From Thermoplasmata archaeon (GTDB taxonomy: Archaea > Thermoplasmatota > Thermoplasmata > WALJ01): a stretch of 64,000 nt of DNA. The stretch is taken from the NCBI GenBank assembly GCA_027006785.1, contig JALTFR010000042.1, forward strand, positions 30,113 to 94,112, given 5' to 3'. The position numbers and the translations under genes were made by a program. The notes below the pieces were generated by a model. That model did not search any database and had not been told where the DNA came from. It saw only the letters and a list, made by a program, of their open reading frames with translations. Below are positions 3,182 to 54,370 of the stretch, one piece after another; within the stretch, counting starts at the first letter, position 1, and each line of letters opens with the position of its first letter.

Positions 3182-3182
3182 T

Positions 3183-4862: not shown

Positions 4863-4900
4863 TGCCATTCGGGGAAATAATGGTATAAAGGTATATAAGG
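4863..4900 (+). repeat. Direct repeat copy 2 (same 19-nt core plus tatataagg tail)
   Basis: Identical core to 594..612; sits 250 bp upstream of the OLD-family gene. Confidence 0.8.
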
Positions 4901-6909: not shown

Positions 6910-8283
6910 TCACTCAAACCGCACCTTCTGCCCCTCTTTGCTGTCCTCTATGATGATGCCGAGCGCCTTTAATCTGTCCCGTATCATGTCGGATGTCGCC
7001 CAGTCCCTATTCTCCCTTGCCTGCTTCCTTATGTCCAGAAGTATCTGTATTATCTCCATCTCCTTTCCCGATGACTGAGCGCTCGCGAAGAGATTGATTC
7101 CGAGGACATCTGCGATTTCCTTTGCTATTTTCAGGTATCCGGCTGTGAGGTTGGGGTTGTCCCTGTGCTTGTTGGCCTCGCTGAAGAGTGAGAAAAGGTT
7201 CGCTATGGCCTCCCTCGTGTTGAAGTCGTCGTCCATGACCTCGATGAACCTCTCCCTGAACTTCACGGCCTCCGAGATGTCCGGTTCGGAATCGCCGGCC
7301 ATTTCTTTGAGGGAGAGAGCGCTCCGCTTCATACTCTGCAAGGCCCTGTGAGTTTCTTCCAGATCATCGAAGCTGAAGTCTATCGGGCTCCTGTAATGCG
7401 TGTAAAGGAAGTAGAACCTGAGGGTGTCAGCGGGATACGTCTTCATCATCTCCCGTATGTTCAGGACATTTCCGAGGGACTTCGACATCTTCTCCCCTTT
7501 CAGGTTCAGGAATCCGGTGTGCAGCCAGTACCTCACGAAGGGCTCCTTTCCGCTGATGCTCTCCGCTATTGCTATCTCGGATTCGTGGTGCGGGAATATC
7601 AGGTCCTGCGCTCCCCCGTGCAGGTCATATTGCTCCCCGAAGTATGTGAATGTTATAGCCGTGTCCTCCACATGCCAGCCCGGCCTTCCCTTTCCCCAGG
7701 GCGATTCCCACCAGGGCTCTCCCTCCTTGTAGGCCTTCCAGAGCGCAAAGTCCTCGGGGTTCCTCTTGTTCTCGTCCGGGGCCACCCTTGCGCCGGCCTG
7801 AAGCTCGTCCATCTTCTGCCCGGACAGCTTCCCAAATCCTCCGAACTTGTTCACCTCGAAGTACACGCTCCCGTTGGATTCGTAGGCATATCCCTTCTCT
7901 ATGAGGGCCTGAACCTGACCGATTATCTCATCTATGTGGTCCGTGGCATTCGCATAAAGGTTCACGGAAGTGACACCCAGCGCCTCCATGTCCTCCATAA
8001 AGGCCTTTGTGTACTGCATAGCGAGTTCCTTTACGCTTATTCCCCTCTCGTTGGCCCTCTGTATCATCTTATCGTCAATGTCGGTGATGTTCATGAGATA
8101 GAATACCTGATATCCCCTGAACCTCAGGTATCTGGCTATCGCATCGAATGCGACATATGTTCTGGCATGGCCTATGTGTGGCATATCGTAGACCGTGGGG
8201 CCGCAGACGAACATGTTGACCCTGTTCCTCTTTATCGGCCTGAACTCTTCCTTCTCTCTTGTCAGCGTGTTGTATACCTGCAT
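6910..8283 (-). CDS. cysS: Cysteinyl-tRNA synthetase
   Basis: 'MQVYNTLTREKEEF' N-terminus; HIGH 'MPHIGHARTY'; KMSKS 'GEKMSKSLGN'. The ORF track extends to 8571 across the tRNA, so the downstream ATG is preferred. Confidence 0.85.
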   Translation of the reverse strand: MQVYNTLTREKEEFRPIKRNRVNMFVCGPTVYDMPHIGHARTYVAFDAIARYLRFRGYQVFYLMNITDIDDKMIQRANERGISVKELAMQYTKAFMEDMEALGVTSVNLYANATDHIDEIIGQVQALIEKGYAYESNGSVYFEVNKFGGFGKLSGQKMDELQAGARVAPDENKRNPEDFALWKAYKEGEPWWESPWGKGRPGWHVEDTAITFTYFGEQYDLHGGAQDLIFPHHESEIAIAESISGKEPFVRYWLHTGFLNLKGEKMSKSLGNVLNIREMMKTYPADTLRFYFLYTHYRSPIDFSFDDLEETHRALQSMKRSALSLKEMAGDSEPDISEAVKFRERFIEVMDDDFNTREAIANLFSLFSEANKHRDNPNLTAGYLKIAKEIADVLGINLFASAQSSGKEMEIIQILLDIRKQARENRDWATSDMIRDRLKALGIIIEDSKEGQKVRFE

Positions 8284-8296
8284 GAGATCACCGGAG

Positions 8297-8369
8297 TGGG
8301 CGAGGAGGGAATCGAACCCCCAGAAACCCGATCTGCAGTCGGGCACATTAGCCACTCTGTCACTCGCCC
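8297..8369 (-). tRNA. tRNA-Cys (anticodon GCA)
   Basis: Manual fold: 7-bp acceptor GGGCGAG/CTCGCCC; anticodon stem CCCGA/TCGGG; loop CTGCAGA (U33, GCA, R37); T-arm GGGGG-TTCGATT-CCCTC; 14 nt upstream of cysS on the same strand; discriminator reads A. Confidence 0.65.
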
Positions 8370-8472
8370 TTGCAGGCTGCGATTGGTATGCAGTATATGA
8401 AACTTTAGGAAAGTATGCGGAGATATCCTTAAATATTGTCTCCCTCTTTAGCACCAAAGGATGGTATAAGAA

Positions 8473-8763
8473 TTGACAGACATAAAACGACTCGTACTGG
8501 ATGTGCTTAAGCCCCACCACCCTTCCATCGTGGAGGTGTCTGAGAAACTGAGCGCTCTGAAAGGAGTGCATGGAGTGAACTGCAGCCTAGAAGAGGTTGA
8601 CCAGGAGACAGAGAGCATAAAGATAACAATAGAGGGAGATCACCTCGATTTTGACAGGATAAAGCTCACACTTGCCGACCTAGGAGCCGATATTCACTCC
8701 ATAGACAGTGTTTCGTCAGGCAGAAGAATAGTAGAAGAGGTCGAGACACCTCAGGACCGTTAA
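8473..8763 (+). CDS. DUF211-family small archaeal protein
   Basis: 'LVLDVLKPHHPSIVE...GVHGVNCSLEEVD...ITIEGDHLDFD...IHSIDSV' pattern; apparent TTG start. Confidence 0.5.
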   Translation: MTDIKRLVLDVLKPHHPSIVEVSEKLSALKGVHGVNCSLEEVDQETESIKITIEGDHLDFDRIKLTLADLGADIHSIDSVSSGRRIVEEVETPQDR

Positions 8764-11575: not shown

Positions 11576-14500
11576 ATGAAAAAAATAGCATTAGCAGTCA
11601 GTATGATTCTTCTGCTGGGTTCTCTGTTCCCGGCAATTGTGATACTTGATGGAGAGGTAAGGGCAGAGCGCAGCAGTGAACCGGAAATAAAGTATACTTT
11701 GCATGCTCCCATAAGGATAGAGAACGATACGGATTTCGCAAACCAGGCGACGAGCGAAGGTTGGAGCGGAGATGGGAGCTCAGGAAATCCTTATCTGATA
11801 GAGAACTATGAGATAGACGCTCATGGGTCTGGAAGTGCCATTTACATTGGAAATACTACGGTTCATTTTACAATACGCTCATGTTATTTTTACAATACGA
11901 GTGATGTTTCATACCCGTATTATTATGGTTCTGGGTTGACCCTCCGTAATGTGACGACGGGAGTTGTGGAATCCAGCAGGATATGGAACAATGAGAACTA
12001 CGGGGTCTTTATGCAGTATTCGATGGGAGTCGTTGTATCCGGCAATAACATATCATACAATGACCAGAGAGGAATATATCTTATGGAATCCGTGAACAAT
12101 ACCATAGAGAACAACGGAATGTATGCTAACCAGTGGTATGGAATAGATCTCTCCACATATTCGAACAACAACAGCATCATAAACAATACCATACTGCGCA
12201 CGGCATCGCACGGCATCTCACTGTCCAACTGTAATGATACGGTTATAAGTAACAATACCATAAAGTACAACTCGCATTACGGGAGCATAGACCTCTCATA
12301 CTCGCTCGGGGCCGTGATAAAGAATAACACGATGGAAGACTATGACAGCCATGGTGGGATATATGTTTCAGGAGACCAGATGAGATACTGGAACACACAC
12401 GACATAGATACGAGCAATATCCTGAAAGGCAAGCCTGTCTACTACTGGAAGGACCGCACATCGGGTAGTGTTCCTTCGGATGCGGCGCAGGTCATCCTCG
12501 CCAACTGTTCGGGCGTATCTGTAGAGAACATGAACATCAGTATGGTTTACGAGGCCATACAGCTGGGTTTCTCAGACAAGAATCACATAAAAAATGTAAG
12601 CCTCTACAAAGATTCGTGGGGCGTGAGACTGCTGTATTCGGACCATAACATCCTTTCGGATAGCGAGATAAGAAACAATGATGACGGCATATGGATAGAC
12701 AGGTGCACGGAGAACACCATAAGGAACAACACCGTCGCGGATTCGAACTATTATGGAATATACATGGCTAGTTTTGATACGACCCCTGTTGTGTGGGGAA
12801 ACTCTTTCTACCACAATAATCTTATAAACAATGCGCATCAGTTATATTATAGCAGTAACAATGAAATAGACAGATGGAACCTGGCATATCCGCAGGGCGG
12901 GAATTTCTGGTCGAACTACAACGGTAACGATATCGAATGCGGAGAATCGCAGAACATATCCGGAAGCGATGGGATGGGGGATAGCCCTCTGACAATATAC
13001 GGGAATCAGGATGCATATCCGCTGATGGCGGCATGGGAAACAGCGCCAAAGGTCATCTCAAGCACCCCCGCAGACGGAGAGAATTCCGTTGCACTGGGAA
13101 AGAACATAAGCATCGTCTTCAGCAGGAGCATGAACACTTCGGTAATTCCCAAACTTCACCAGATAGATGGAACGGGTGTTGTCTATTCATTTTCTGGATG
13201 GTCCAGCACAAATCTGGAGAACGACACCGCAACATGGACTCATGATGACTGGAATGAGAAGGAATGGGTGGGCCTGGAACTCTGCAATTACTCCGATACT
13301 GAAGAGCGCTACGGATTGCCACACATATGGTCATTCAAGACAGTGGACCTCACTGCGCCCCATGTGTCATCGACTGACCCTGCAGACGGGGAGGCTTCCG
13401 TTTCTCTCGCTCAGGATGTGAAGGTCGTCTTCGATGAAAGCCTGGACACATCCGTCATTCCACAGTTCAGCGAACTGAGTTCTTCGGGAGTATCTTACAC
13501 CTTTGCGGGTTTTTCATCCACAAATGAAAATAACGACACCGCAACATGGACGCACGGTTCATGGCCCGAAAAATACGCGGTGGAACTGAAGGTCACGGGG
13601 GCAGAGGACAGCTCCGGTAATGTGATGGGTACGGCATATGTCTGGAACCTCACCACGGCCGACCTGACACCGCCGAATGTGATTGGGACAGAACCATATG
13701 ATGGAGAGACAGGTGTCAACAAATCGGTATCCATAGTGGTAGTGTTTTCGGAAGAGATGAACACTTCATACAATTCCGGCCACCCGACCCTTATTCTGGA
13801 GAACGGAACATACGGCGGAAGCTGGACATTCCTCGGGTGGAGCAGCACGAATGTTATGAACGATACGGCCAGATGGTCACATGATCCCTTCGAGGAAAGG
13901 GACAGGATATCACTGAGGGTGCAGAACTATGCGGACCTTGCGGGAAATGCGGGAAGCCCGTATGAATGGACATTCTACACCGAGGATACCCAGGCGCCTT
14001 CGATTACAAAGACAACCCCTGAACAGGGGGATTCCGGTGTGAACGAGAACGAGAATGTCACGATAACCTTCTCAGAAAGCATGAACACATCCGCACCACC
14101 GGTTATTACGCAGACCGGGGGAAATCCCGTAAATTACACATTCTCCCACTGGGAGAGCGTTTATGTGGCAAACGACACGGCCATCTGGACCCATGACCCA
14201 TGGTCATCGGAAGACTCCGTAACCCTCATGGTTTCAAATTACAGCGACCCTGCAGGGAACATCGGTGTCAATTACACATGGTCATTCGACATAAGAGACT
14301 ATGTGGGGCCCCATGTCCTGTCCACGGACCCTGCGGACGGCGATGTGTGGGTTCCTCTGGACAAGGTGGTTACCGTGGTCTTCTCAGAAACCATGAGCTA
14401 TGCCAGGGTCTATGGAGAAGTGGGGGTCACATACACATTCCTCGGATGGAGCACGACCTATGTCCACAATGACACCGGTATGTGGAGCCACACAAACTGG

Positions 14501-17437
14501 AGCGAGAACATGGACCTGCTGATATCTGTGGATAATCTTCAGGATGAGGCAGGAAATGCGGGAGACAAATATCAGTTCACCATACATACCGCAGACCTCA
14601 CGAAACCCCTGGTGAGCGACCTGACGCACCCCTACAATGGGCAGAAGAATGTAGCTTACGGCGCCAATGTGAGCGTCGTCTTCACGGAGTCCATGAACAG
14701 CTCGGTCACACCCACACTGGTTCAGAATGCTGGAGATATGGTGACCTACACCTTCCTCGGCTGGTTCACCACGGACAACGATAATGATACTGCGATATGG
14801 TCGCACGACGACTGGACCGATTCTGACACGGTCAACCTCACGGTTTCAAATTATAGTGACCGTGCAGGTAACATTGGTGATGCATATACATGGGAGTTCA
14901 GGGTTGAGGATCACACCGCCCCCCATGTGGTGGCCACCTCTCCCCCCGACGGAGCCATAAATGTCTCCGCACATCTGGCCAGTATAACGGTCACATGGTC
15001 GGAGCCGATGGACTCAAATGGAAATCCGGCATTGGACATCGTTGAATCGGACGGGGCAAGACCGAACATCGTATTTTACAGGTGGTTGAACGACACGACG
15101 GCGATTTTCAATGTCAGCGGAAACTTCTCGGAATCCGATAATATAGAACTGAGAGTTGGCACGGTACAGGATCCGTACAACAACGATGCGGTGACATATT
15201 ACTGGTGGATATACACCTACGACCCTGTTCCCCCGACTGTCTCTGATGCCATCCCTCTTCCGGGAGGTGCTGCGGAAAAGAACGCCACTGTTACAGTAGC
15301 ATTCAGCGAGAAGATGAATGAATCTGTCATTCCACAGATAACACAGGCGGACGGTGACCCGGGCAGCTGGGTCTTCCTCGGATGGAGCACAGGATACCAT
15401 AATGTTTCCGGAGAGATGAAAGAGGTGTCCGAGGCGAACTGGGCCCACAACAACTGGACCACCGACAGGGTTAACCTGACGGTATCCGGATACAGGGACA
15501 TATGCGGAAATTGGGGACAGCCGTATTCATGGGAATTCAATGTCTCTGTCTACGATGACCATTCCATGATACGGATAAACAGCAATGCGGAGTTCGCTAA
15601 CATGGCCTTATCCGAGGGATGGGCCGGGGACGGAAGTCCGGGCAACCCATACATCATCGAGTACTACGAGATAAACGGCGACGACGGAAGGGGAGGATAC
15701 TGCATTTACATAGGGAACACGACATCGAACTTCATAATACGCCATAACAAGCTGAACTACGCCTATACTGACAATGCGGTGTATCCATACTATCCGAGGG
15801 CATCCGTGGTCCTTTACAATGTCACGGGCGGAAAGGTGGAAGATAACAGCATGCTTGTGGAGTCGGATTTTGCAGTCTATACCTCTGAAAGCCAGAATGT
15901 GAACATAAGCGGGAACACCATACACAACGCATGGTGGAACGGAATGAACATAGAGGATTCGCAGTATATCACGATAGACGGGAACGAATTGACCGGCGGC
16001 GGGAACGGGCTTTACCTGAAGAACAGCCCGTATGCCAGCATACGCAGGAATATCCTGTCTCACAACGGTGACCAGCAGGGTATAACGCTCGAGAACTCAA
16101 GTTATGCGGTGCTCGTCGGGAATCTCATATCGGATTATGCCTATGGAATAGTCTTCGACCCCAGCGATGGAACGGATGTTAACATAACCCTGGAAGGAAA
16201 TGCCATGAAGAACTGCGGACTGATGATATGGGGATGGATGGCAGAGCACTGGACATCCCATACGATAGTGAACAACACCGTGAACAGCAGGCCGCTTGTG
16301 TTCCTGAACGGAGTGGATGATTCCCAGATAAACTACACTGTACAGGCCGGCCAGATATACCTGGTGGACTGCTACAATGTATCAGTGTCATATCAGTTCA
16401 TCGTAAGGGCAAGCATCGGCCTTTATGTGGCCATGTCACAGCACATAACCGTGGTGAACTCCACATTCGGATACAACAACTATGGAATATACATGGTGGG
16501 CAGCGACTCGAACCTGATATGGCACAACAACTTCGTGGGGAACGATGTGCAGGCCCATGATGACGGAGGCTCCGGAGATAACGCATGGAACGAGACCTAC
16601 CCGTATTCAGGAAATTACTGGGACGACTACGGAGGGAGCGATAACAACCTAGGGCCCGGGCAGAACTACCCGGGAAGCGACGGCATCGGGGATTCGCCCT
16701 ATTCGATAGACGGAGGCGGTGCGGAGGACAAATACCCGCTGATGAACCCGACGAACCTGACCCTGTACTACACTCCGGGATGGCACATGGTGGCCTTCCC
16801 GTGGCTCGACAGCCCGACGGATATAACGGATGTCCTCTCCGGGCAGTCATGGGACAGGGCAATGGTGTATGTCAACGGCACATGGCACACATACAATGCG
16901 AACAGGGATGCTAAGTTCAACGGAGATTTCCCGAAGATAGACAGGAGCATGGGGCTGTGGGTGAACTTCACGGACAACAGCACGCTGATAGCGCCCTCTC
17001 CGATACACACGGGAAACATAACCGTGTATCTACATCCGGGCTGGAACCTTGTGGAAGGCGGTCTGCCTTTCCTTGTCAGCGAGGTCTTTGAAGGAGTGGA
17101 TCACAGCCATGTGGAGAGCGCTAACCTGACGGACCCGTCTGAGATGGAGCACATGACGGAGAACGACACAATGATGCCGGGAAGGGGCTACTGGGTCTAT
17201 GTAGATGGGAATTACACGATAAGCATAGATACTGACCTCTTCGAGATAACCGTTCAGGAAGGACTCATCTATAACAGCCATCCTGTTCAGGACATGGATT
17301 CCGACCCTCCTGCAGATGTCAGCAGTTCAACAGCGCCTATCACAGACAATACGCCCGATCATACGCCTTTCATAGCGCTCTCGGTTGCGATCATCGGCAT
17401 GCTGGGAACAGCATGGGCCATAAGGAGAAGGCGCTGA
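11576..17437 (+). CDS. Giant (1953 aa) membrane-anchored surface glycoprotein: signal peptide, two right-handed beta-helix (NosD/PbH1-like) modules flanking at least 8 SbsA-type Ig-like domains, C-terminal TM anchor plus RRRR
   Basis: N-terminal 'MKKIALAVSMILLLGSLFPAIVIL'; repeated 'NNTI..N' beta-helix repeats at both ends; repeated 'VVFSESMNTSV.P'-type motif 8 times; C-terminal 'FIALSVAIIGMLGTAWAIRRRR'; dozens of N-x-S/T sequons; SD gaggag upstream. Confidence 0.8.
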   Translation: MKKIALAVSMILLLGSLFPAIVILDGEVRAERSSEPEIKYTLHAPIRIENDTDFANQATSEGWSGDGSSGNPYLIENYEIDAHGSGSAIYIGNTTVHFTIRSCYFYNTSDVSYPYYYGSGLTLRNVTTGVVESSRIWNNENYGVFMQYSMGVVVSGNNISYNDQRGIYLMESVNNTIENNGMYANQWYGIDLSTYSNNNSIINNTILRTASHGISLSNCNDTVISNNTIKYNSHYGSIDLSYSLGAVIKNNTMEDYDSHGGIYVSGDQMRYWNTHDIDTSNILKGKPVYYWKDRTSGSVPSDAAQVILANCSGVSVENMNISMVYEAIQLGFSDKNHIKNVSLYKDSWGVRLLYSDHNILSDSEIRNNDDGIWIDRCTENTIRNNTVADSNYYGIYMASFDTTPVVWGNSFYHNNLINNAHQLYYSSNNEIDRWNLAYPQGGNFWSNYNGNDIECGESQNISGSDGMGDSPLTIYGNQDAYPLMAAWETAPKVISSTPADGENSVALGKNISIVFSRSMNTSVIPKLHQIDGTGVVYSFSGWSSTNLENDTATWTHDDWNEKEWVGLELCNYSDTEERYGLPHIWSFKTVDLTAPHVSSTDPADGEASVSLAQDVKVVFDESLDTSVIPQFSELSSSGVSYTFAGFSSTNENNDTATWTHGSWPEKYAVELKVTGAEDSSGNVMGTAYVWNLTTADLTPPNVIGTEPYDGETGVNKSVSIVVVFSEEMNTSYNSGHPTLILENGTYGGSWTFLGWSSTNVMNDTARWSHDPFEERDRISLRVQNYADLAGNAGSPYEWTFYTEDTQAPSITKTTPEQGDSGVNENENVTITFSESMNTSAPPVITQTGGNPVNYTFSHWESVYVANDTAIWTHDPWSSEDSVTLMVSNYSDPAGNIGVNYTWSFDIRDYVGPHVLSTDPADGDVWVPLDKVVTVVFSETMSYARVYGEVGVTYTFLGWSTTYVHNDTGMWSHTNWSENMDLLISVDNLQDEAGNAGDKYQFTIHTADLTKPLVSDLTHPYNGQKNVAYGANVSVVFTESMNSSVTPTLVQNAGDMVTYTFLGWFTTDNDNDTAIWSHDDWTDSDTVNLTVSNYSDRAGNIGDAYTWEFRVEDHTAPHVVATSPPDGAINVSAHLASITVTWSEPMDSNGNPALDIVESDGARPNIVFYRWLNDTTAIFNVSGNFSESDNIELRVGTVQDPYNNDAVTYYWWIYTYDPVPPTVSDAIPLPGGAAEKNATVTVAFSEKMNESVIPQITQADGDPGSWVFLGWSTGYHNVSGEMKEVSEANWAHNNWTTDRVNLTVSGYRDICGNWGQPYSWEFNVSVYDDHSMIRINSNAEFANMALSEGWAGDGSPGNPYIIEYYEINGDDGRGGYCIYIGNTTSNFIIRHNKLNYAYTDNAVYPYYPRASVVLYNVTGGKVEDNSMLVESDFAVYTSESQNVNISGNTIHNAWWNGMNIEDSQYITIDGNELTGGGNGLYLKNSPYASIRRNILSHNGDQQGITLENSSYAVLVGNLISDYAYGIVFDPSDGTDVNITLEGNAMKNCGLMIWGWMAEHWTSHTIVNNTVNSRPLVFLNGVDDSQINYTVQAGQIYLVDCYNVSVSYQFIVRASIGLYVAMSQHITVVNSTFGYNNYGIYMVGSDSNLIWHNNFVGNDVQAHDDGGSGDNAWNETYPYSGNYWDDYGGSDNNLGPGQNYPGSDGIGDSPYSIDGGGAEDKYPLMNPTNLTLYYTPGWHMVAFPWLDSPTDITDVLSGQSWDRAMVYVNGTWHTYNANRDAKFNGDFPKIDRSMGLWVNFTDNSTLIAPSPIHTGNITVYLHPGWNLVEGGLPFLVSEVFEGVDHSHVESANLTDPSEMEHMTENDTMMPGRGYWVYVDGNYTISIDTDLFEITVQEGLIYNSHPVQDMDSDPPADVSSSTAPITDNTPDHTPFIALSVAIIGMLGTAWAIRRRR

Positions 17438-23268: not shown

Positions 23269-26200
23269 TCAGAAAGACGAAACGCCCGATTCATCCTCCT
23301 GCTCTCTCTGAGGTGGGTTTTCCCCGGAGCTCTGTGGCGGTGCTTCTTGAACAGGTGGCTGGCTCTGCATTGGCATCACGGGATTCGTTTCCGGAGGTCT
23401 CTTTCTCTTTGCAATAAGTACTGCTGCGATGATGCCCACTATGACCAGTATCAGCAGAATGTACAGCCATGGCATACCGGATGAAGACTTCTTGCTGGCG
23501 GGAAGTTCCACTGCAGGAATATTTTTATGCTCTCCGGGAGAGACGCTTGTCTCAATCGTTTTCTTCTCATATCCATCCTTTGATACGGCCAGTGTGTGGT
23601 TCCCCGCATGAACCTCTATCTCGAAATGGCCGCTGGCATCCGTTATCGCTGTTTCTCCGGTATCAAGTCTTACCGTTGCCCCCTCTATCGGGTTCCCATT
23701 CTCATCCGTGACGGTTCCGGTTATGGTGGCCATATCTTCTGGAGCATTGTGTGCAGTCGTGAAATTCCATGTGTAATCCAGCCTATTGCCTGCCAGATCG
23801 GAGCCTGTTACATGAACCACATATTTCCTGCCGTGCTCCAGTTCAGAAGAGGGTGTGAATGTAAGGGTCCTTCCGCTCCAGCTAATATTTCCAGATAGGC
23901 CATCGCCAATTACCTTCACTGTGCTGACATTCATGTCCTCGGAGAATCTCACTGTTATCGTCGTATCAACGGACACATTGTTTCCTGTGGGAGATGCACT
24001 TGTAACTGAGGGTGGTGTGGTATCGGTTTCAAATCCAGCACTGGCGGTTTTTTCGTTCCCTGCACGATCTACCGCCTTAACTTCCACAGTATGGCGCCCA
24101 TCAGATATTCCAGTGAAGTCATAAGAGGTGTTCTTTCCGACGCCTATCCATGAACCCCTGTCCATTCTCACTTCGTAGTGGTCTATCTTTGAGGTGTTGT
24201 CCGAAGCATGCCACCGAACGGTCATGGAATCCGTGTTGAAAAGTCCTCCGTCTTCCGGAGAGTCTATGCTCAGATCAGGGACTATTGTATCGTATCCGGC
24301 TATGGCTTCGGCACTGTTCTTCTCCTCGCTCTTTCCCGAAGCGTCCGATGCCTTAGTGTAGAACTGATAATATCCATCACCATCGCTGAAGATGAAGTCC
24401 CTGCTTCCAGTCCATGATGTGCCCGATATGGATATGGTCACATACTTGATCCATGCGGACCATGTTGAGTTATCCTCGCTGAAGCGATAGTATATCGTTA
24501 TATTTGACAACTCTTTGTCATCGCTAGCAGTTAGTTCGAGAGTGACCTTGGATGTGTGCCAGTAGGGGGTGACCGGAGATGTGCTGGATGTGGGTGCCTG
24601 TGAATCCAAGGTTTCGGTGGTGAAGCTCCATGAATAATCATCCTTCGGAGAGCCTTCCGACGTGCCGTTTTTGTTGCCGTCCAGACTGTTGCCATTTGTA
24701 TCATTGGCTATGCTACCGTCCACTTTGACGGTGTATGTGGTCCCTCCCTCCAGATCTGAAGACGAAGTGAATGTCATGGTTCTTTTCGCTGCATCCCATG
24801 AGAAATCCCCTGTTATCGCCGGGTTTATAGAAAAGGCCTTTTCCACACTGCTGGTGTTCATGCTCTCATTGAATGTTATTGTTATAGCGGAACTGACAGA
24901 TATATCTGTACCTGTTGGAGAAACAGATACGACTGTTGGCGGTGTGGTGTCCGTTGATTCTGTGGTAAAATCGAAAGAGTAAGGAGCTCCTGAAAGTGTG
25001 TTTCCAGCAGTGTCATTTGCAGATGTTATGTTCATCCAGTATCTCGTTGCAAGAGCAAAACTTGCATGTGAGAGTGTTGCCTGTGTTTTATCGGAATTCC
25101 ATGAGACACTCCATCCGCCGGGGTCCGGTTCGCAGGTGAAATTGAATGTGCTGGCATCTATGGATTCTGAGAAGGATATCACCACATCCTGAGTGATGGA
25201 AACGCCTGTTGCTCCATCCGATGGGTTGGTCGAGCTCACTGTGGGCTGTGTGCCGTCATAGGTATAGGATGAGGCTTCCGGCGCATCGCCCGATGAAGGT
25301 GCGGACTCTCCATCACCCACGGCCATCCACCCATATGTTCCATCAGAGGGTATGGTCCAGTCGTATTGGCCATCTATGCTGGAATCGCTTCCGATGTGCG
25401 TCCATGTGTTGCCATTGTCCGTGGTGTAGTAGAGATCAACGGATGAAACGCCTACCTCATAGGTGTATTCTATGGTTATGTGTGCCACATTGGAAGGGTC
25501 GCTATTGGTTGGGCCGGTGGCCGTTGCCGTGTGTGAGGATGCAGAGACTGTATCAAAGCTCCATGTATGGTCCGCCTGAGTGTTTCCTGCCACATCCTCA
25601 GCTCCACTTACCGTGAGTTCTATGGTGTCGCTGTTATCCCAGTCGTTATGGGTCCATGTTGCGGTGTCGTTATCAACATTTGTTGTAGTCCATCCCGCAA
25701 ATGTGTATGTTACGGATGTTCCCGATGTCTGGGACAGCGTTGGGGTTACGGATGTGTCCATGCTCTCATCGAATATAACAACAATATCCTGACCTACGGA
25801 AACCTCTGTTGCTCCATCCGATGGGTTGGTCGAGCTCACTGTGGGCTGTGTGCCGTCATAGGTATAGGATGAGGCTTCCGGCGCATCGCCCGATGAAGGT
25901 GCGGACTCTCCATCACCCACGGCCATCCACCCATATGTTCCATCAGAGGGTATGGTCCAGTCGTATTGGCCATCTATGCTGGAATCGCTTCCGATGTGCG
26001 TCCATGTGTTGCCGTTGTCCGTGGTATAGTAGAGGTCCACGGATGTTGCTCCCGTGTCATTATCGTATGTTATCGTTATGTCCGCAACATTGGAAGGGTC
26101 GCTGTTGGTTGGGCCTGTGGCCGTTGCCGTTGGGCCTGAAGCGATTGTGAAATTCCACGAATAAGGTGAGCCCGACAGTCCGTCCATATCCGTATAGTTT

Positions 26201-29200
26201 GACACCTTGAGTTCCACATTGTCGGAATATGACCAATCATTATGGCTCCATGTTGCCGTATCATTGTCTGTATGTGTGCTACTCCACCCTAAGAATGTCC
26301 ATCCACCTGGGTCTGTACCTCCGGTCTGCACAATGTCCGGTGTTACGGTAGTATCCATTTCCTTGCTGAAAATGACCTGCACATCCTGGGATGCAGACAC
26401 ATCCGATGAACCGTCGGAGGGATGCTCTTCTATGACTGAGGGTGGAACTGTCGAGGTGAGCCATTCGATTATCCTGTACATGAGCAGTGTTCTATTTGCG
26501 GCACCGTTGACATCCGCAAAGTCAAAGGCTGTATAAACAACCCTGTAAACACCTGTGTCCGCTCTCGTTGCCACATAGGTGGGGGTCGGTTCGGTAAAGA
26601 ATGTTATGCCTCCATTTACAGGCGTATTATTGGTCCAGTAGCCCCATAGATTCGGGTTTGAATCTCCCTGATGTGCCGTGAAATTCAGGCCGTCACTGAT
26701 CGGGTCTCCCGCAGAGCCATTCAAAACATACGGCGTGTGCCCGCCATAGTAGTTTTGATAACTAGAATGCAGATATGTCCGATACCAGTTGCTCCAGCCA
26801 TTTGTTCCTGCATCCACTCCGGCCAGACTGCTTGAGAAATAGAGCCTTCCTCCATCATCAAGATATGTGCCAAGATTTGCTCTATCGCTCACATCCAGTG
26901 TCGGGACAGAGCCCCATGAAGTACCATAATCATTTCCCGTGAACCAGATGACAACATCGTGCATCTCCAGGGTGTTGAGGTCAGGGCTTCCCCAGTTCTG
27001 GACATCCCAGAAGTTATAGGAGTAGTTATTGTCGTCCAGAGCCGTGTAGTACCAGTTCTCTGTGTCCAATCCGGAATCGTCGTCCACCACAAGGATTGGA
27101 GCGAGAGCCTGAGTTAGAATCTCAGAACTAACATTCGCATCAGTATCGTTCTGCGATATTGCAATTATGTGTGCGATATCATAGTCTCCTAGATTTGCGC
27201 CTGAGGGAATGTCCACCTTTACGGTTATGTTAGCACTTTCCCGGGAGTTCAGGCTTATCTGACTTATCGTATTTGTCCCTGTTGAATCATAGATCGTGGT
27301 CGTCCATGTATTGTTTGATACCGTAAGATTGTAGCTGTCTGGCACATCACCGGAGTTTGTAATACGTAGGGTGTAATTAACGGTGGTAGAAGAATCTCCA
27401 AATCTCGATGCCGATGATGGAGTTAGAACGACGCCATAGGGGTATGTCAGCCAGTGAATTATCCTATACATCAGTTGGTCTCTGACACTCGAATCATTTA
27501 AATATGCAAAGTCAAAACCAGAATAAACTACTCTGTATATTCCAGTATCCATTCTTATTATTCCTGCATCGGAATTTTCAGTGAAATTGAAGGAAACCAC
27601 ACTCCCATTCACCGGTGATAGTTCCATCGTATGTCCTATAAGATTTGTATCATAGTCTCCAACTCCGGTATGGAGAACCATCCCATCTCCTATCGGATCA
27701 TGATTAAGGCCCGTGTAATTGGTTGCATAGGACCAATAGGCATTAACCAGTTCAGCATGAAGATATTCTTCATGCCACGCGCTCCACCCATTAGCCCAGT
27801 AAGCATCTACGGCAGCGGCTCCACTTGAGAAATACAGCCTTCCGCCATTATCCAGATAATCTCCGAGGTTCTGCCTGTCGGTTGCAGTAAGTGTATGGGT
27901 GCCACTATATCCATCGTCGTTCCCGGTGAACCAGATGACAACATCGTGCATCTCCAGGGTGTTGAGGTCAGGGCTTCCCCAGTTCTGGACATCCCAGAAG
28001 TTATAGGAGTAGTTATTGTCGTCCAGAGCCGTGTAGTACCAGTTCTCTGTGTCCAATCCGGAATCGTCGTCCACCACAAGGATTGGAGCGAGAGCCTGAG
28101 TTAGAATCTCAGAACTAACATTCGCATCAGTATCGTTCTGCGATGTTGCAATTATGTGTGCGATATCATAGTCTCCCGGATTTGCACCTGCGGGAAAGTC
28201 CACCCTCACAGTTATATTTGCACTTTCATTAGAATTCAGGCTTATCTGGCTTATGGGGTTTGTGCCTGTCGCATAGATCGTTGTGGGCCATGCGTTGTCT
28301 GAAACAGAGAGGTTGTAAGTGTCGTTGTTGGTTCCGATATTGTGTATGGTAAGATTGTACCATACCGATGTTCCTAAATCTCCCAAAGAGTGTTGATTTT
28401 CTGGAGTGATGGATACCAGATAGGGAAGATATGTGGAGGTCCCTTCAACTGCAAGAATGAGGTTTTCCAGCAGTTTGGAGTATCCGTGTGACCATGCCCA
28501 TTCCACAGTTTGACCGGTGGCTATCACTCGCCCATCTCCCCAGGGATAGTCCAGAAGCACAGGGTATGAACTCCCAGAATCTCCTTCGCTCAACACCGTG
28601 TCTGCCCATAAAGGCCAATCTGTAAAGTATCGGTGATATGAATTGTGCCAATTATCCAACTCTGTGTCTGTGATATTGTTCGGAAGTGTGAGGAACGGAT
28701 GGTCTGGGTAGGATATGTTGACAGTATCTCCTTCATTGTAAGTGGAGGATAGGCCACAAGGTATATCGTTGAAATCCCCCCAGTCATCGGCATGTATGTT
28801 AAGAATGCCACCGTTCTCCACATAGGATTCGAACCATTGTTTGTTATCAGATATTGCGGAATAAAGCGATGAGTCCTGCCCGTCGCCTCCGACAATTATC
28901 ACCTTATCATATGCTGAGAGATTTACTGCGCCAATGTCTCCTGGACCATATACGGTGTAGGGAATCCCCCACTCGCTCAGTATATCTCTTATTGCGGGCA
29001 AATCCCAGGGGTCCTTGGTTTGGAAAAGCGCGACGTGATGGGGGCCGTGCAGATAATAGGTTCTTATCTGTGCGTCATCTTGTACACTAGTGTCATTTTG
29101 CGATGAGGCAACAATTGCAGAGATATCGTGATCCCCCAAGTTGGCATCGGATGGAATGCCAACCTTTACCGTTATATTTGCGCTTTCACCGGAATTCAAG

Positions 29201-31467
29201 CTTATCTGGGTTATCGGATTCGTGCCAGTCATATCATAAATCGTCGTGGGCCAAGTATTGTTTGATACTGTGAGGTTATATGTGTCCGGAACATTACCTG
29301 AATTTATAATAGTGAGTGTGTAGTTAACGGTGGTGGAAGGATCTCCGAATCTCGATGCTGATGAAGGGGTGAGTGCTACACCATAGGGGGTGGTCAGCCA
29401 GTGGATTATCCTGTGCATGAACTGGTCTCTGGTGGATGAGTCATTCACATACGCGAAGTCGAAGGAGCTGTATACCACCCTGTATGTGCCAGTATTTGCC
29501 CTTATCAGCCCTGCTTCTGAGTTTCCGCTGTAGTTGAACGATACGATCCCGCCGTTTATTGGGTTGTTCCTTCCATGATATCCCCATAGGTTCCAATCCA
29601 CATCACCTGTTCCGGTCTGCAGGACCATACTGTCTCCTATCGAGTCGTAAGGGACGCCGTTGAAAGTGTAGGAACCGCCCCAGTACTCATCTATGAACTG
29701 TGCATGCAGGTATGTCTCATACCAGCCATCCCACCCGTTGTTCCAGTATGCATCCACTCCAGCCAGACTGCTGGAGAAATACAATCTTCCTCCGTTATCC
29801 AGATAATCTCCGAGGTTCTGCCTGTCGCTTGCTGTGAGGGTATAACCATTCCAACCATCGTCGTTCCCTGTGAACCAGATAGTGACATTGTGCATCTCCA
29901 GGGTGTTGAGGTCGGGGCTACCCCAGTTCTGGACATCCCAGAAGTTGTATTCATAGGCGTTATCGTCCAGAGCATCGTAGTACCAGTTCTCGGTGTCCAA
30001 TCCGGAATCGTCGTCCACCACGAGGATTGGGGCAGAGACCTGCGTGGTTATTGTTGATGTCTCGCTCGTATTCGTATCGTTCTGCGATGCTGCGGTTATG
30101 TAGGTGATATCATAGTCTCCCGGATTTGCGCCTGAGGGAATGTCCACCTTTACGGTTATGTTCGCACTTTCCCCGGAATTCAGGCTTATCTGGCTTATCT
30201 GGTTTGTTCCGCTTGCATCATATAGTGTTGTCGTCCATGTGTTGTCTGATACCGAGAGGTTGTAAGTGTCGTTGTTGGCACCATAATTTCCTATTGACAG
30301 AGCATACCACACGGTATCCCCTGGGTTATTGATAGAGTGTTGGTTGGCTGGCCTCAACAACATACGATATGGCGGTGGGATGTAGATGAATTCTATGGCC
30401 AGCCCATCTGTTATGCCCTGACTGTTATAGAGATACTGAAGGCCATCCGTCCCATCGCTGTTTTCGATGCCCACGGTCGCACTGCTGCTGTTGGCATTGC
30501 CCATCGACTCATACTGGAACCATATCTCCCCTGTCTCGTTGAGTATGGCCTCGAATTTCATGGGCCCATATCCTGAAAGAGTCCACCAATCGTCCCATTC
30601 CACTATAAACTGACGGTGTGGTTCTGTACCGATTAGCTGATAATATATACTTCCTCCATTACTTTGAAGGTCATCCCAGAACGGACAGATTATATTGCTC
30701 GGATCACCTGTGCTATGGATTGGAGCGTTGTCATACGCTCCAGAACCTGCCCCGAAACTTATAAGCCCGTTTGTGCTGAAATAGACACTGTCGTATTTGT
30801 TTTCATAAAAAGAAAAATCGAAGCCTATCGTTGCTGAGCCATAATTGTCATCACCCGTAACTCCAGAATCGGTCCCTGTCGAGTTTATCTCTATCCAGTT
30901 ATAGTTCACGGACGGATTTCCCGTACTGTTCACCCAGATATATCCCCAGTTATCCGGGCCGCCTGAATCTGACGGGTTCGGTCCCGGTTCTGCACTTCGG
31001 GTGCCCTCGCCAGTTCGTGTTCTTTTACTGACGGTAAAGGATGATTGTCTTGCCGAATCCCACGATGGCAAACTAGATTTATCCTCGCGATTCTTTATGT
31101 GCTGGGCATACAATGAGTTTAACTCGTTATCTTGCAGAAGTATCATATTCTTGTGCCCGCCTGTTGCCTCTGGATTCAAATAATGTTTTTCAAGCAATTG
31201 GTTGCGATTTTCCTTTTCTATCCTACGGTTGACCTGTTGTTCCAGTGAAACTCCATTCTCTTTTGCATTATCATTTCCAAGATTCTTCACCGCTTCGGGC
31301 CCTGCCAGAGCAGTGGATGGAGAAGTCTCATTGACTGTTACTTCATCCCCATTCACATACATTGCATTTCCCGAAATCAGAACGCCCATCCCAGATAGCA
31401 GAAGTATTGCTACAATTATAACTGAAACAAGCGTTTTTCTATTATTCCCATCCGTATTCTCTTTCAT
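23269..31467 (-). CDS. Giant (about 2730 aa) membrane-anchored surface glycoprotein/adhesin with internal tandem repeats, at least 5 SbsA-type Ig domains, a carboxypeptidase-regulatory-like domain, and a C-terminal TM plus Pro/Gln-rich cytoplasmic tail
   Basis: N-terminal 'MKENTDGNNRKTLVSVIIVAILLLSGMGV' preceded by SD aggagg; three copies of 'APILVVDDDSGLDTENWYY...'; two copies of 'ATATGPTNSDPSNVA...YDGTQPTVSSTNPSDGAT'; 'TITGTVTDENGNPIEGATVRLD'; C-terminal 'MPWLYILLILVIVGIIAAVLIAKRKR'. The ORF track start 31506 is 13 codons longer. Confidence 0.8.
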   Translation of the reverse strand: MKENTDGNNRKTLVSVIIVAILLLSGMGVLISGNAMYVNGDEVTVNETSPSTALAGPEAVKNLGNDNAKENGVSLEQQVNRRIEKENRNQLLEKHYLNPEATGGHKNMILLQDNELNSLYAQHIKNREDKSSLPSWDSARQSSFTVSKRTRTGEGTRSAEPGPNPSDSGGPDNWGYIWVNSTGNPSVNYNWIEINSTGTDSGVTGDDNYGSATIGFDFSFYENKYDSVYFSTNGLISFGAGSGAYDNAPIHSTGDPSNIICPFWDDLQSNGGSIYYQLIGTEPHRQFIVEWDDWWTLSGYGPMKFEAILNETGEIWFQYESMGNANSSSATVGIENSDGTDGLQYLYNSQGITDGLAIEFIYIPPPYRMLLRPANQHSINNPGDTVWYALSIGNYGANNDTYNLSVSDNTWTTTLYDASGTNQISQISLNSGESANITVKVDIPSGANPGDYDITYITAASQNDTNTSETSTITTQVSAPILVVDDDSGLDTENWYYDALDDNAYEYNFWDVQNWGSPDLNTLEMHNVTIWFTGNDDGWNGYTLTASDRQNLGDYLDNGGRLYFSSSLAGVDAYWNNGWDGWYETYLHAQFIDEYWGGSYTFNGVPYDSIGDSMVLQTGTGDVDWNLWGYHGRNNPINGGIVSFNYSGNSEAGLIRANTGTYRVVYSSFDFAYVNDSSTRDQFMHRIIHWLTTPYGVALTPSSASRFGDPSTTVNYTLTIINSGNVPDTYNLTVSNNTWPTTIYDMTGTNPITQISLNSGESANITVKVGIPSDANLGDHDISAIVASSQNDTSVQDDAQIRTYYLHGPHHVALFQTKDPWDLPAIRDILSEWGIPYTVYGPGDIGAVNLSAYDKVIIVGGDGQDSSLYSAISDNKQWFESYVENGGILNIHADDWGDFNDIPCGLSSTYNEGDTVNISYPDHPFLTLPNNITDTELDNWHNSYHRYFTDWPLWADTVLSEGDSGSSYPVLLDYPWGDGRVIATGQTVEWAWSHGYSKLLENLILAVEGTSTYLPYLVSITPENQHSLGDLGTSVWYNLTIHNIGTNNDTYNLSVSDNAWPTTIYATGTNPISQISLNSNESANITVRVDFPAGANPGDYDIAHIIATSQNDTDANVSSEILTQALAPILVVDDDSGLDTENWYYTALDDNNYSYNFWDVQNWGSPDLNTLEMHDVVIWFTGNDDGYSGTHTLTATDRQNLGDYLDNGGRLYFSSGAAAVDAYWANGWSAWHEEYLHAELVNAYWSYATNYTGLNHDPIGDGMVLHTGVGDYDTNLIGHTMELSPVNGSVVSFNFTENSDAGIIRMDTGIYRVVYSGFDFAYLNDSSVRDQLMYRIIHWLTYPYGVVLTPSSASRFGDSSTTVNYTLRITNSGDVPDSYNLTVSNNTWTTTIYDSTGTNTISQISLNSRESANITVKVDIPSGANLGDYDIAHIIAISQNDTDANVSSEILTQALAPILVVDDDSGLDTENWYYTALDDNNYSYNFWDVQNWGSPDLNTLEMHDVVIWFTGNDYGTSWGSVPTLDVSDRANLGTYLDDGGRLYFSSSLAGVDAGTNGWSNWYRTYLHSSYQNYYGGHTPYVLNGSAGDPISDGLNFTAHQGDSNPNLWGYWTNNTPVNGGITFFTEPTPTYVATRADTGVYRVVYTAFDFADVNGAANRTLLMYRIIEWLTSTVPPSVIEEHPSDGSSDVSASQDVQVIFSKEMDTTVTPDIVQTGGTDPGGWTFLGWSSTHTDNDTATWSHNDWSYSDNVELKVSNYTDMDGLSGSPYSWNFTIASGPTATATGPTNSDPSNVADITITYDNDTGATSVDLYYTTDNGNTWTHIGSDSSIDGQYDWTIPSDGTYGWMAVGDGESAPSSGDAPEASSYTYDGTQPTVSSTNPSDGATEVSVGQDIVVIFDESMDTSVTPTLSQTSGTSVTYTFAGWTTTNVDNDTATWTHNDWDNSDTIELTVSGAEDVAGNTQADHTWSFDTVSASSHTATATGPTNSDPSNVAHITIEYTYEVGVSSVDLYYTTDNGNTWTHIGSDSSIDGQYDWTIPSDGTYGWMAVGDGESAPSSGDAPEASSYTYDGTQPTVSSTNPSDGATGVSITQDVVISFSESIDASTFNFTCEPDPGGWSVSWNSDKTQATLSHASFALATRYWMNITSANDTAGNTLSGAPYSFDFTTESTDTTPPTVVSVSPTGTDISVSSAITITFNESMNTSSVEKAFSINPAITGDFSWDAAKRTMTFTSSSDLEGGTTYTVKVDGSIANDTNGNSLDGNKNGTSEGSPKDDYSWSFTTETLDSQAPTSSTSPVTPYWHTSKVTLELTASDDKELSNITIYYRFSEDNSTWSAWIKYVTISISGTSWTGSRDFIFSDGDGYYQFYTKASDASGKSEEKNSAEAIAGYDTIVPDLSIDSPEDGGLFNTDSMTVRWHASDNTSKIDHYEVRMDRGSWIGVGKNTSYDFTGISDGRHTVEVKAVDRAGNEKTASAGFETDTTPPSVTSASPTGNNVSVDTTITVRFSEDMNVSTVKVIGDGLSGNISWSGRTLTFTPSSELEHGRKYVVHVTGSDLAGNRLDYTWNFTTAHNAPEDMATITGTVTDENGNPIEGATVRLDTGETAITDASGHFEIEVHAGNHTLAVSKDGYEKKTIETSVSPGEHKNIPAVELPASKKSSSGMPWLYILLILVIVGIIAAVLIAKRKRPPETNPVMPMQSQPPVQEAPPQSSGENPPQREQEDESGVSSF
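25205..25430. repeat. Near-identical ~230-bp DNA repeat, copy A, inside the giant gene (600-bp period)
   Basis: Virtually identical to 25805..26030 (only about 5 mismatches seen); flanks are diverged. Confidence 0.8.
25805..26030. repeat. Near-identical ~230-bp DNA repeat, copy B
   Basis: See copy A. Confidence 0.8.
26941..27160. repeat. Near-identical ~220-bp DNA repeat, copy A, inside the giant gene (980-bp period)
   Basis: Identical run 'gaaccagatgacaacatcgtgcatctccagggtgttgaggtcagggcttcccc...' also at 27921..28140; a diverged third copy near 29880..30100. Confidence 0.8.
27921..28140. repeat. Near-identical ~220-bp DNA repeat, copy B
   Basis: See copy A. Confidence 0.8.
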
Positions 31468-31582
31468 CCATATGCCTCCTCGATCTTTAAATTTCCAGAT
31501 AGACATCTGGAAATACTATATATAGTTTTCTCAGATTACAACTCTATGCGCTCTCCGCTTGTGAAAAATAGCAAAACATATT

Positions 31583-48717: not shown

Positions 48718-48750
48718 AAACCTTTTAAACCATACTTCACTTCCATTTTT

Positions 48751-48945
48751 ATGAGCGATATACCTCCTCACAAACACTGTCCCGTATGCGGGATATCTAT
48801 ACCTCCCGACCAGGAATTCTGCTCCAGAAAATGCGAGAAAGTATGGGAAGATGCCATGAGAAAGAAGAAGAAAAGTGCATACCTGCTGTGGGCTCTCATG
48901 GGCATACTGGTTGCTGTGGGAGTGTGGATGATGCTGGGGAAATGA
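48751..48945 (+). CDS. DUF2116-type zinc-ribbon small membrane protein
   Basis: 'HCPVCGISIPPDQEFCSRKCEK' plus C-terminal TM. Confidence 0.5.
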   Translation: MSDIPPHKHCPVCGISIPPDQEFCSRKCEKVWEDAMRKKKKSAYLLWALMGILVAVGVWMMLGK

Positions 48946-48946
48946 C

Positions 48947-54369: not shown

Positions 54370-54370
54370 A

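Follow-up and report, generated by a model that had tools for sequence, protein, structure and literature searches.

A single giant gene of an uncultured archaeon, encoding a probable surface protein, contains two pairs of identical DNA tracts, each set within protein repeats whose segments outside these islands mostly share only 44–82% amino acid identity. The gene lies in a 64-kb stretch of one contig (64,000 nucleotides, referred to here as the window), and its sequence indicates that the tracts are very probably the product of recent and recurrent intragenic gene conversion among paralogous modules of old origin. This adds a further case of a well-known process and reveals no new mechanism.

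Organization of the gene and its product

The gene consists of one long open reading frame, the major modules of which are as follows, all coordinates being those of the window.

23269..31506, minus strand: giant putative surface-protein gene, a single ORF of 2745 aa
29362..30381, minus strand: unit U1 (Ig + B1), aa 376-715
28435..29361, minus strand: unit Ig (A2) + C domain, aa 716-1024, between U1 and U2
27415..28434, minus strand: unit U2 (Ig + B2), aa 1025-1364
26407..27414, minus strand: unit U3 (Ig + B3), aa 1365-1700
25207..26406, minus strand: R1 + R2, two 200-aa Big_5 + X units, aa 1701-2100, period 600 nt

The gene end at 31467 given in a preliminary description corresponds to the annotated start of database copy P0001 (Met14 of the full ORF; 2732 aa; one member, on one contig), and the ORF reaches 31506. 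The protein comprises, in order, an N-terminal hydrophobic segment (aa 24-49), a NIDO-like domain and four Ig-like + GATase1-like units; next come the Big_5/X repeats, an fn3-like domain, a CarboxypepD_reg domain and a C-terminal transmembrane anchor (aa 2675-2702) with KRKR after it. The number of N-x-S/T sequons is 65, compared with 44.5 +/- 5.7 in shuffled sequences. Labelling the product a surface glycoprotein is consistent with the hydrophobic and transmembrane segments and with the sequon enrichment, which together suggest a modular, membrane-anchored surface protein that is probably N-glycosylated.

The protein repeats were found by BLAST comparison of fragments against the whole; a self-BLASTP of the entire protein returned the self-match alone. 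Units U1, U2 and U3, each an Ig domain plus a 'B' domain, are ~330 aa in length, and an Ig + 'C' unit between U1 and U2 accounts for their spacing of 649 aa. R1 (aa 1701-1900) and R2 (aa 1901-2100) are 200 aa each, and the arrangement thus agrees with the earlier account of three repeats of ~330-650 aa and two of ~200 aa. Tandem Repeats Finder reports no repeats for the gene, since the periods exceed 500 nt. Mismatches between repeats outside the tracts are concentrated on the third positions of minus-strand codons (e.g. 93/70/156), with pN/pS of 0.3-0.5, showing that the giant minus-strand ORF is the selected frame.

Two identical tracts within diverged repeats

Tract 1 is shared by U2 and U3, with a more distant counterpart in U1, and tract 2 by R1 and R2.

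27926..28176, minus strand: tract 1, U2 copy (aa 1111-1194; perfect core 27926..28144)
26939..27189, minus strand: tract 1, U3 copy (aa 1440-1523; perfect core 26939..27157)
29870..30120, minus strand: homologue of tract 1 in U1 (offset 2931), an older, diverged third copy, ~79% identical
30106..30195, minus strand: older U1/U3 patch (U1 aa 438-467), 93-95% identical to U3 aa 1415-1444
25806..26013, minus strand: tract 2, R1 copy (aa 1832-1901)
25206..25413, minus strand: tract 2, R2 copy (aa 2032-2101)

The two copies of tract 1 are identical over 219 nt without interruption, and over 251 nt with one mismatch (27158, non-synonymous, Thr/Ile), at a period of 987 nt. The tract takes in the end of the Ig domain, the linker and strands beta1-beta3 of the B domain, the position in the fold being taken from a predicted structure. 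The identical part accounts for 21-25% of the period, and the U2/U3 pair as a whole is 68% identical. Tract 2 is a perfect 208-nt repeat at a period of 600 nt, of which it makes up ~35%, and R1 and R2 as a whole are 75% identical; its R1 copy spans the X domain and extends into the initial residues of the Big_5 domain that follows.

The preliminary description had reported near-identical DNA cores in mostly diverged protein repeats, and in this it was correct. Its pairing of 25205..25430 with 25805..26030 holds as given (98.7% identity). Its second pairing, 26941..27160 with 27921..28140, is right as to near-identity, which is 99.5% at offset 987, but its coordinates are 7 nt out of register and yield 23% identity. 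The more diverged third copy that it placed near 29900 is the U1 homologue listed above, and self-comparison of the gene confirms that divergence is not uniform across the repeat units.

The U1 homologue is itself heterogeneous, with 85-88% identity to tract 1 in the B-domain part and ~60% in the linker part. The older U1/U3 patch corresponds on the U3 side to 27175..27264, where U2 is 80-87% identical, and perfect runs of 33-40 nt are common to U1 and U2/U3.

High-identity repeats within the window are restricted to this gene, and no further copies of either tract are present in the 64 kb. The other giant gene of the contig (11576..17437), which encodes six Big_5 domains, has no DNA-level repeats.

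Synonymous divergence and mosaic structure

Sliding-window dS is 0.00 within both tracts, whereas most windows in the flanks are saturated (dS >1). For U2/U3, dS ranges from 1.1 to saturated from ~30 codons upstream of the tract and again from immediately downstream. For R1/R2 it does so more than ~45 codons upstream, is graded (0.26-0.93) closer to the tract, and the alignment collapses just downstream. The 5' edges of the tracts are thus graded over ~30-45 codons, with identity rising from 76% to 88% to 100%. Because dS is zero inside the tracts and saturated in the flanks, protein-level selection cannot explain the identity, and the flanks must be old.

When the codon columns of the same alignments were shuffled 20000 times, the longest perfect run averaged 21-25 nt and never exceeded 57-67 nt; the observed runs were reached in 0/20000 shuffles for either pair. 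In the three-way alignment of U1, U2 and U3 the closest pair switches along the length in the order 12, 13, 23, 12, 13, 12. Clustering of informative sites is significant for each class: a run of 45 '23' sites (0/20000 shuffles), a run of 10 '13' sites (4/20000) and a run of 13 '12' sites (30/20000). The recent intragenic conversion proposed earlier is therefore supported both by the contrast in dS between the tracts and their near-saturated flanks and by the mosaicism of the three units.

GC3 is slightly higher in the tracts (0.61 and 0.57) than gene-wide (0.51), the samples being small; we count the slightness of this rise against the conversion reading.

The same data bear on the possibility that the identical stretches are what is left of a young partial duplication, or of a very recent cycle of expansion and contraction by two-step unequal crossing-over. 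In favour are the tandem, in-frame arrangement at periods of 987 and 600 nt, the fact that unequal crossing-over relies on the same machinery, and the ability of expansion followed by contraction to yield an identical mosaic. A simple recent duplication, however, predicts identity over the whole period rather than over 21-25% or ~35% of it, and both flanks are old (dS >1). The two-step version is formally indistinguishable from conversion and is less parsimonious; taken together, we regard these histories as quite unlikely.

Zero synonymous divergence could also arise if an embedded element, whether RNA, regulatory site or antisense ORF, froze the synonymous sites. Antisense ORFs at 25209..25616 and 25809..26150 (plus strand) do begin at the low-coordinate edges of the tract 2 copies, but long antisense ORFs are present all along the gene, and substitutions outside the tracts track the minus-strand codon phase. 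Tracts 1 and 2 are unrelated to each other, and tract 1 is not under strict nucleotide constraint, since its U1 copy differs by ~21%. A scan of the gene against Rfam at E <= 1 gave no match except one chance match outside the tracts, and no notable inverted repeats were found in the tracts, the only pair being of 15 nt and 80% complementary. We consider selection at the nucleotide level highly improbable.

Relatives, other assemblies and the fidelity of the sequence

The gene is known from a single metagenome-assembled contig, and this one assembly (P0001) traverses both repeats. Exact look-up of the giant protein, GyrB (with two starts), MptA and the DHH gene identified no second assembly of the locus; the only match to the window is a 4.8-kb Logan contig (SRR10312495), 100% identical and 18 kb from the gene. 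The nearest relatives in a protein search have ~36-40% identity over about a quarter of the protein (best, 38% over 27%). No close orthologue was found in a scan of a genome collection, which gave distant bacterial fn3-like matches only, or in a scan of a metagenome collection, where the best match was 41% over the C-terminal third.

An assembly or polishing artefact, in which one consensus was written into two similar copies or the contig was mis-joined through a repeat, has to be weighed given this single source. Bubble-popping or polishing with multi-mapped reads could render identical two tracts that differ by a few percent, and lengths of 208-251 nt fall within the span that short-read assemblers still bridge, which may introduce an ascertainment bias. 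Such errors, however, can only sharpen an island that is already similar, and cannot create one within flanks that are 35-55% different. Each tract has four flanks that differ from one another, and only the tandem order X-T-Y-X'-T-Y' would give a path through all of them. The graded 5' edges look like biological decay rather than a cut in an assembly graph, and the Big_5 repeats of the neighbouring giant gene, on the same contig, have no such islands.

An unrelated assembly shows the same pattern. P0003, from an independent Thermoplasmatota metagenome-assembled genome (GCA_040753455.1), is a relative with a perfect 533-nt tract in a diverged repeat of 900-nt period. Five of the 120 giant surface proteins listed, P0003 included, have islands of 100% amino acid identity of at least 80 aa inside internal repeats, and homogenised islands are by this count common in repeated surface-protein genes. 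We therefore judge an artefact unlikely; a strain-chimera assembly was also considered and rejected. The earlier suggestion that the region is prone to assembly collapse is plausible, and short-read assembly, read mapping and variant calls should be considered unreliable at 25206..26013 and 26939..28176.

The predicted fold of the B domain

The B domain, which carries tract 1, is predicted to have a GATase1-like alpha/beta fold. It has no Pfam match, and a sequence search against the PDB returned no matches. Prediction of a whole Ig+B unit from a 4-sequence alignment folded the Ig part alone (overall pLDDT 45), and the model used here (pLDDT 79) was obtained from an alignment of the B domain only, with two metagenomic homologues. 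Foldseek matched this model, at E-values between 3e-8 and 1e-5, to structures that include 4jqs, 5fms, 3rht and 1qdl; for 4jqs, 5fms and 3rht (3e-8 to 3e-6) TM-scores are ~0.6 at 10-15% sequence identity. The resemblance is to the ThuA-like, IFT52 N-terminal (GIFT) and class I glutamine amidotransferase-like fold.

The possibility that the domain is a class I glutamine amidotransferase enzyme was rejected, as the Cys-His-Glu triad is absent and the domain shares the fold of the enzyme without its catalytic residues; B1, B2 and B3 contain zero cysteines, and the amidotransferase nucleophile is accordingly missing. Unlike the proteins matched, the B domains are also repeated within one protein and, to judge from its sequence, extracellular.

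A model for the exchange

All donor and acceptor modules (U1/U2/U3 and R1/R2) lie inside one ORF. We propose that the internal modules arose by old duplications and then drifted to synonymous saturation, and that later homologous recombination between misaligned modules copied short stretches onto a paralogue with no change in copy number. The exchange would have been non-reciprocal, that is, gene conversion, with ~220-250 nt copied between U2 and U3 and ~210 nt between R1 and R2. RadA-dependent repair is the likely route: a break or gap would be mended with the neighbouring repeat as template, either within the same chromosome or from a different genome copy. Seeding probably occurs in the segments held most similar by selection on the protein, and copying probably stops where divergence or an indel blocks heteroduplex; the longest stretches of unbroken identity in the U1/U2/U3 alignment fall within the N-terminal portion of the B domain, which is conserved.

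Tract 1 was most likely copied from U2 to U3. Immediately 3' of the tract, and again further 5', U3 is the unit that differs from the other two; because of this, and because the 85-88% identity between U1 and the tract equals the U1-U2 level, U2 is favoured as the donor and U3 is the likely acceptor. In the linker part, where U1 is ~60% identical, the direction is ambiguous. The older, partly decayed U1-U3 and U1-U2 patches indicate that conversion has been repeated over time.

As a by-product, conversion would leave identical direct repeats with periods of 987 and 600 nt, which could serve as substrates for the loss or gain of whole modules. Such changes would stay in frame, as both periods are multiples of 3. 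Differences between strains in repeat number or mosaic pattern, as the preliminary description expected, may occur.

Relationship to known systems

Gene conversion is documented in archaea, both in the equalisation of genome copies in Haloferax volcanii (PMC11276520) and between tandem mtrA paralogues (mtrA-1/mtrA-2 domains) of methanogens (PMC4632066). The present case resembles these in the apparently non-reciprocal exchange between close paralogous sequences, in the divergence of neighbouring parts, and in having an archaeal host with standard recombination proteins. It differs in that the partners are not separate genes or copies of the chromosome but modules of one ORF, and in that the tracts are short (~0.2 kb) and very recent.

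Periscope proteins (PMC8201768), found on the surface of bacteria, contain long arrays of domain repeats that are identical at the DNA level, and their length varies from strain to strain. The protein described here is similarly large, composed of globular domain repeats and predicted to be anchored at the surface, and identity of the repeat DNA likewise provides a recombination substrate for which deletion or expansion would be in frame. It lacks, however, a long array that is DNA-identical over the whole repeat: identity covers only ~210-250 nt per 600-987-nt unit, the units overall are 68-75% identical, there are 2-3 copies, the units comprise two domains (Ig + GATase1-like, Big_5 + X), and the host is archaeal.

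In Neisseria pilE/pilS, Borrelia vlsE and Anaplasma msp2, silent donor cassettes are copied into one expression site and the product is diversified. Here too short conversion tracts would make mosaic surface-protein sequences, although donor and acceptor are both expressed, as modules of a single ORF, and the effect of the exchange is to homogenise them. Cassette-type antigenic variation was rejected, there being no silent copies of the tracts within the 64-kb window. A diversity-generating retroelement was rejected as well: the tracts differ at 0-1 positions, edge mismatches affect all bases and follow codon phase, and no reverse transcriptase domain was found in the ORFs scanned. That scan, which covered most (not all) ORFs of at least 200 aa in the window, likewise found no transposase or site-specific recombinase.

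Biological implications

A further suggestion, which we put forward as speculative and rather doubtful, is that recurrent conversion keeps the islands fresh and that they act as built-in recombination sites for switching module number. If this were true, a population would be able to alternate between protein forms that have two or three Ig-B modules and one or two of the Big_5-X type, losing or gaining 329 or 200 residues in frame at each step, and the protein would be an archaeal counterpart, with multi-domain units, of the bacterial variable-length Periscope surface proteins. At least one other giant surface protein of the Thermoplasmatota has an island of this type, which would fit a habit shared across the family.

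The gene offers a clean, quantifiable case of what is very probably recent conversion within the coding sequence of a giant, predicted surface protein from an uncultured archaeon. The case suggests that homologous recombination is active on homologies of ~0.2 kb in this Thermoplasmatota-type lineage, and it marks two sites at which in-frame loss or gain of modules may be possible.

The giant gene and its setting

The second giant gene of the window is a single open reading frame (23269..31506, minus strand) of 2745 aa. Its database copy, P0001, begins at Met14 of this frame (window 31467), which accounts for the end coordinate of 31467 in the preliminary description; P0001 comprises a single member sequence, from a single NCBI contig (102 kb). 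The neighbouring genes are archaeal chromosomal genes, with those for a DnaG-type primase, Lhr helicase, MptA, and DNA gyrase B and A directly upstream, and a thermosome, PCNA, a Hel308-type helicase, an anaerobic ribonucleotide reductase, and KaiC/RadA-like ATPases elsewhere in the window, together with a lone 5S rRNA and a tRNA-Cys. Named relatives of the thermosome are Thermoplasmata/Thermoplasmatota MAGs (66-69% identity), and two source-named matches of the giant protein, P0003 and P0098, carry the label Candidatus Thermoplasmatota.

Domain order of the giant protein, from Pfam and self-comparison
~aa 180-375, NIDO-like domain
aa 376-715, U1, Ig-like (NEW3/FixG_C-type) + B
aa 716-1024, Ig + C unit
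aa 1025-1364, U2, Ig + B
aa 1365-1700, U3, Ig + B
aa 1701-1900, R1, Big_5 + X, 200 aa
aa 1901-2100, R2, Big_5 + X, 200 aa
after R2, more Big_5 and fn3-like domains, a CarboxypepD_reg domain, and the anchor

A hydrophobic segment (aa 24-49) lies at the N-terminus, and a transmembrane segment (aa 2675-2702) followed by KRKR at the C-terminus; with the excess of N-x-S/T sequons (65, versus 44.5 +/- 5.7 in shuffles), these suggest an anchored, N-glycosylated surface protein.

DNA-identical tracts within diverged repeats

DNA self-comparison bears out the earlier observation of near-identical islands within drifted repeats: divergence is not uniform, with two tracts at 100% identity inside aligned pairs that are 68% (U2/U3) and 75% (R1/R2) identical overall.

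26939..27157 = 27926..28144, tract 1, common to U2 and U3, 219 nt perfect, offset 987 nt
25206..25413 = 25806..26013, tract 2, common to R1 and R2, 208 nt perfect, offset 600 nt
~29870..30120, third, diverged copy of tract 1, 79% identical

With a single non-synonymous mismatch, tract 1 reaches 27189/28176 (251 nt). The pairing 25205..25430 = 25805..26030 was right as first described (98.7% over 226 nt), as was the more diverged third copy, placed near 29900. For 26941..27160 = 27921..28140 the near-identity stands (99.5% at offset 987), but the register was 7 nt off, giving 23% as paired. In 20000 shuffles of codon columns the longest perfect run averaged 21-25 nt and never exceeded 67 nt. 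No other high-identity repeats occur elsewhere in the 64-kb window, including the giant gene at 11576..17437 with its six Big_5 domains.

Tract 1 covers the last Ig strand, the linker, and B-domain strands beta1-beta3 (as positioned on the B model); it straddles the Ig/B boundary and is therefore not a domain-sized duplication. A fresh duplication is unlikely, as it predicts identity across the entire 600- or 987-nt period, which is not observed. GC3 is 0.57 and 0.61 in the tracts, versus 0.51 for the whole gene and 0.38-0.45 in the U2 flanks; this might hint at GC-biased conversion, in samples too small to tell.

Synonymous divergence and mosaic structure

In codon alignments dS is 0.00 throughout both tracts. 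For U2/U3 it is 0.36-0.39 in windows spanning each edge of tract 1, and 1.1 to saturated from ~30 codons upstream and immediately downstream; for R1/R2 it is 0.26-0.93 over ~45 codons upstream of tract 2 and 1.1 to saturated farther out, with identity collapsing just downstream. Mismatches outside the tracts are concentrated at minus-strand third codon positions (pN/pS 0.3-0.5) and, given the high flank dS, the units are therefore old and the protein under purifying selection. By their synonymous sites the tracts are young, a pattern that selection on the protein cannot yield.

Along the Ig-B alignment the closest pair switches from U1-U2 to U1-U3, U2=U3 (tract 1), U1-U2, U1-U3, and again U1-U2, with one U1-U3 patch reaching 93-95% identity over U1 aa 438-467. 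Informative sites are significantly clustered: the run of 45 sites uniting U2 and U3 was matched in 0 of 20000 shuffles, that of 10 uniting U1 and U3 in 4 of 20000, and that of 13 uniting U1 and U2 in 30 of 20000. Such switching and clustering are classically the mark of gene conversion that has acted repeatedly between paralogous repeats. Recent intragenic gene conversion within the giant gene, as proposed in the preliminary description, is thus well supported by zero dS in the tracts, old flanks, and mosaic Ig-B units.

An assembler could have homogenised near-identical copies into identical ones, but this could only sharpen islands already similar, and leaves unexplained the graded tract edges, the island-free neighbouring giant gene, and an independent example in P0003; moreover, each tract has four distinct flanks, and the tandem path alone uses all of them. 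A contig stitched from two strains was rejected, since it needs saturated-dS alleles with a 100% island, itself requiring recombination. It is improbable that the tracts embed a functional element at the nucleotide level: an Rfam match and meaningful inverted repeats are both lacking, antisense ORFs are present all through the gene, and the third copy of tract 1 has been free to diverge. Most, though not all, mechanical ORFs of at least 200 aa in the window were scanned, and none encodes a reverse transcriptase, transposase, or site-specific recombinase; a DGR was rejected on the lack of a reverse transcriptase among these ORFs and of an adenine-specific mismatch pattern, and cassette-type variation on the lack of silent tract copies in the 64-kb window.

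Direction and edges of the tracts

U3 is the most divergent unit directly 3' of tract 1 and farther 5', and U1 is 85-88% identical to tract 1 over its B-domain part; on this evidence U2 is the more likely donor and U3 the acceptor, with ambiguity in the linker part. Read in the direction of the gene, each tract is graded at its 5' edge and sharply bounded at its 3' edge, the latter lying at the start of an indel-containing loop (tract 1) or of a Big_5 domain in which divergence is much higher (tract 2); these positions fit a model in which divergence would halt heteroduplex extension. The P0003 tract also has a graded 5' edge, and on its 3' side about a dozen third-position mismatches precede a collapse of identity. 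The asymmetry, anecdotal with three cases, could mean that heteroduplexes extend preferentially in one direction, or that several events had a common stop point.

Relatives and the B domain

No close orthologue of the giant protein was found in the protein, genome-contig, and metagenome-contig collections searched. The independently assembled P0003 (Thermoplasmatota MAG GCA_040753455.1, locus L008, 2917..8490), more distantly related within the family, shows the same pattern: it contains a perfect tract of 533 nt inside a repeat of 900-nt period, and the flanks drop to ~35-40% nucleotide identity. Among the 120 giant surface proteins retrieved, five (P0003, P0017, P0024, P0085, and P0096) have islands of 100% amino-acid identity, at least 80 aa long, inside internal repeats; with the P0003 tract, these indicate that the phenomenon is common in this protein class.

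The B domain (~225 aa) has no Pfam model and occurs in three copies.

26392..27111, minus strand, B3
27412..28098, minus strand, B2
29362..30045, minus strand, B1

An AlphaFold model of B only (pLDDT 79) matches ThuA-like, IFT52 N-terminal (GIFT), and class I glutamine-amidotransferase-like (GATase1) structures (Foldseek E 3e-8 to 1e-5; TM ~0.6). All three copies lack cysteine, and the fold is therefore amidotransferase-like without the enzyme's catalytic residues. A B-domain profile matched 6264 cluster representatives, 615 of them at E<=1e-30; the domain is often present several times in proteins of 1000-6000 aa, and B looks like an extracellular domain family of wide distribution. Of the first 120 relatives, P0002 alone carries it (one clear copy and one marginal match), and the triplication is therefore lineage-specific.

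Other loci of the window

The first giant gene (11576..17437, plus strand) encodes 1953 aa with NosD/right-handed beta-helix repeats and six Big_5 domains; unlike the second it has no DNA-level internal repeats, and the two share one 68-nt, 81% match (13188..13255 versus 25636..25703). What looks like a small defence island (662..6877; GC 38-41% versus ~50%) contains an AAA_5 + EVE-domain, McrB-like protein (662..3181), an adjoining 467-aa ORF without Pfam match, and an AAA_15/AAA_21 ATPase (5150..6877). The tRNA-Cys (8296..8369, minus strand) lies within the 5' extension of the mechanical cysteinyl-tRNA synthetase ORF (6910..8571, minus strand); the Pfam catalytic-domain match starts at residue 110, so cysS probably has its true start downstream of the tRNA, which would place the two side by side on the same strand. 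In 51672..56960 the gene order is T2SSE-T2SSF-T2SSF-T2SSE, with two genes for T2SSF membrane proteins enclosed by two paralogous genes for PilB-like (T2SSE) ATPases; the arrangement resembles a type IV pilus/archaellum-like locus of archaea in which the ATPase is duplicated. The stretch 48084..52862 is matched at 100% identity by Logan contig SRR10312495_204535 (4779 bp), and run SRR10312495 therefore contains the same strain; the contig stops at 52862, near a 73%-similar paralogous stretch (52440..52838 versus 56046..56447). The 5S rRNA gene (60508..60629, plus strand), with no 16S or 23S nearby, lies between the PCNA and DUF835 protein genes.

Relation to known systems

Archaeal precedents for concerted evolution by gene conversion exist among tandem paralogues (PMC4632066) and between genome copies (PMC11276520), and the mechanism in the giant gene matches; its tracts add a new example of this well-known process. 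Functionally, the nearest analogues are the bacterial 'Periscope' surface proteins, in which repeats identical at the DNA level make intragenic recombination and changes in length possible (PMC8201768), but the giant gene falls outside that definition, with only ~1/4 to 1/3 of each unit identical and two or three copies. Its repeat periods are in frame (987 = 3 x 329, 600 = 3 x 200). The most interesting reading, if true, is one we regard as improbable: that identical in-frame direct repeats would allow the giant gene to lose or gain modules.
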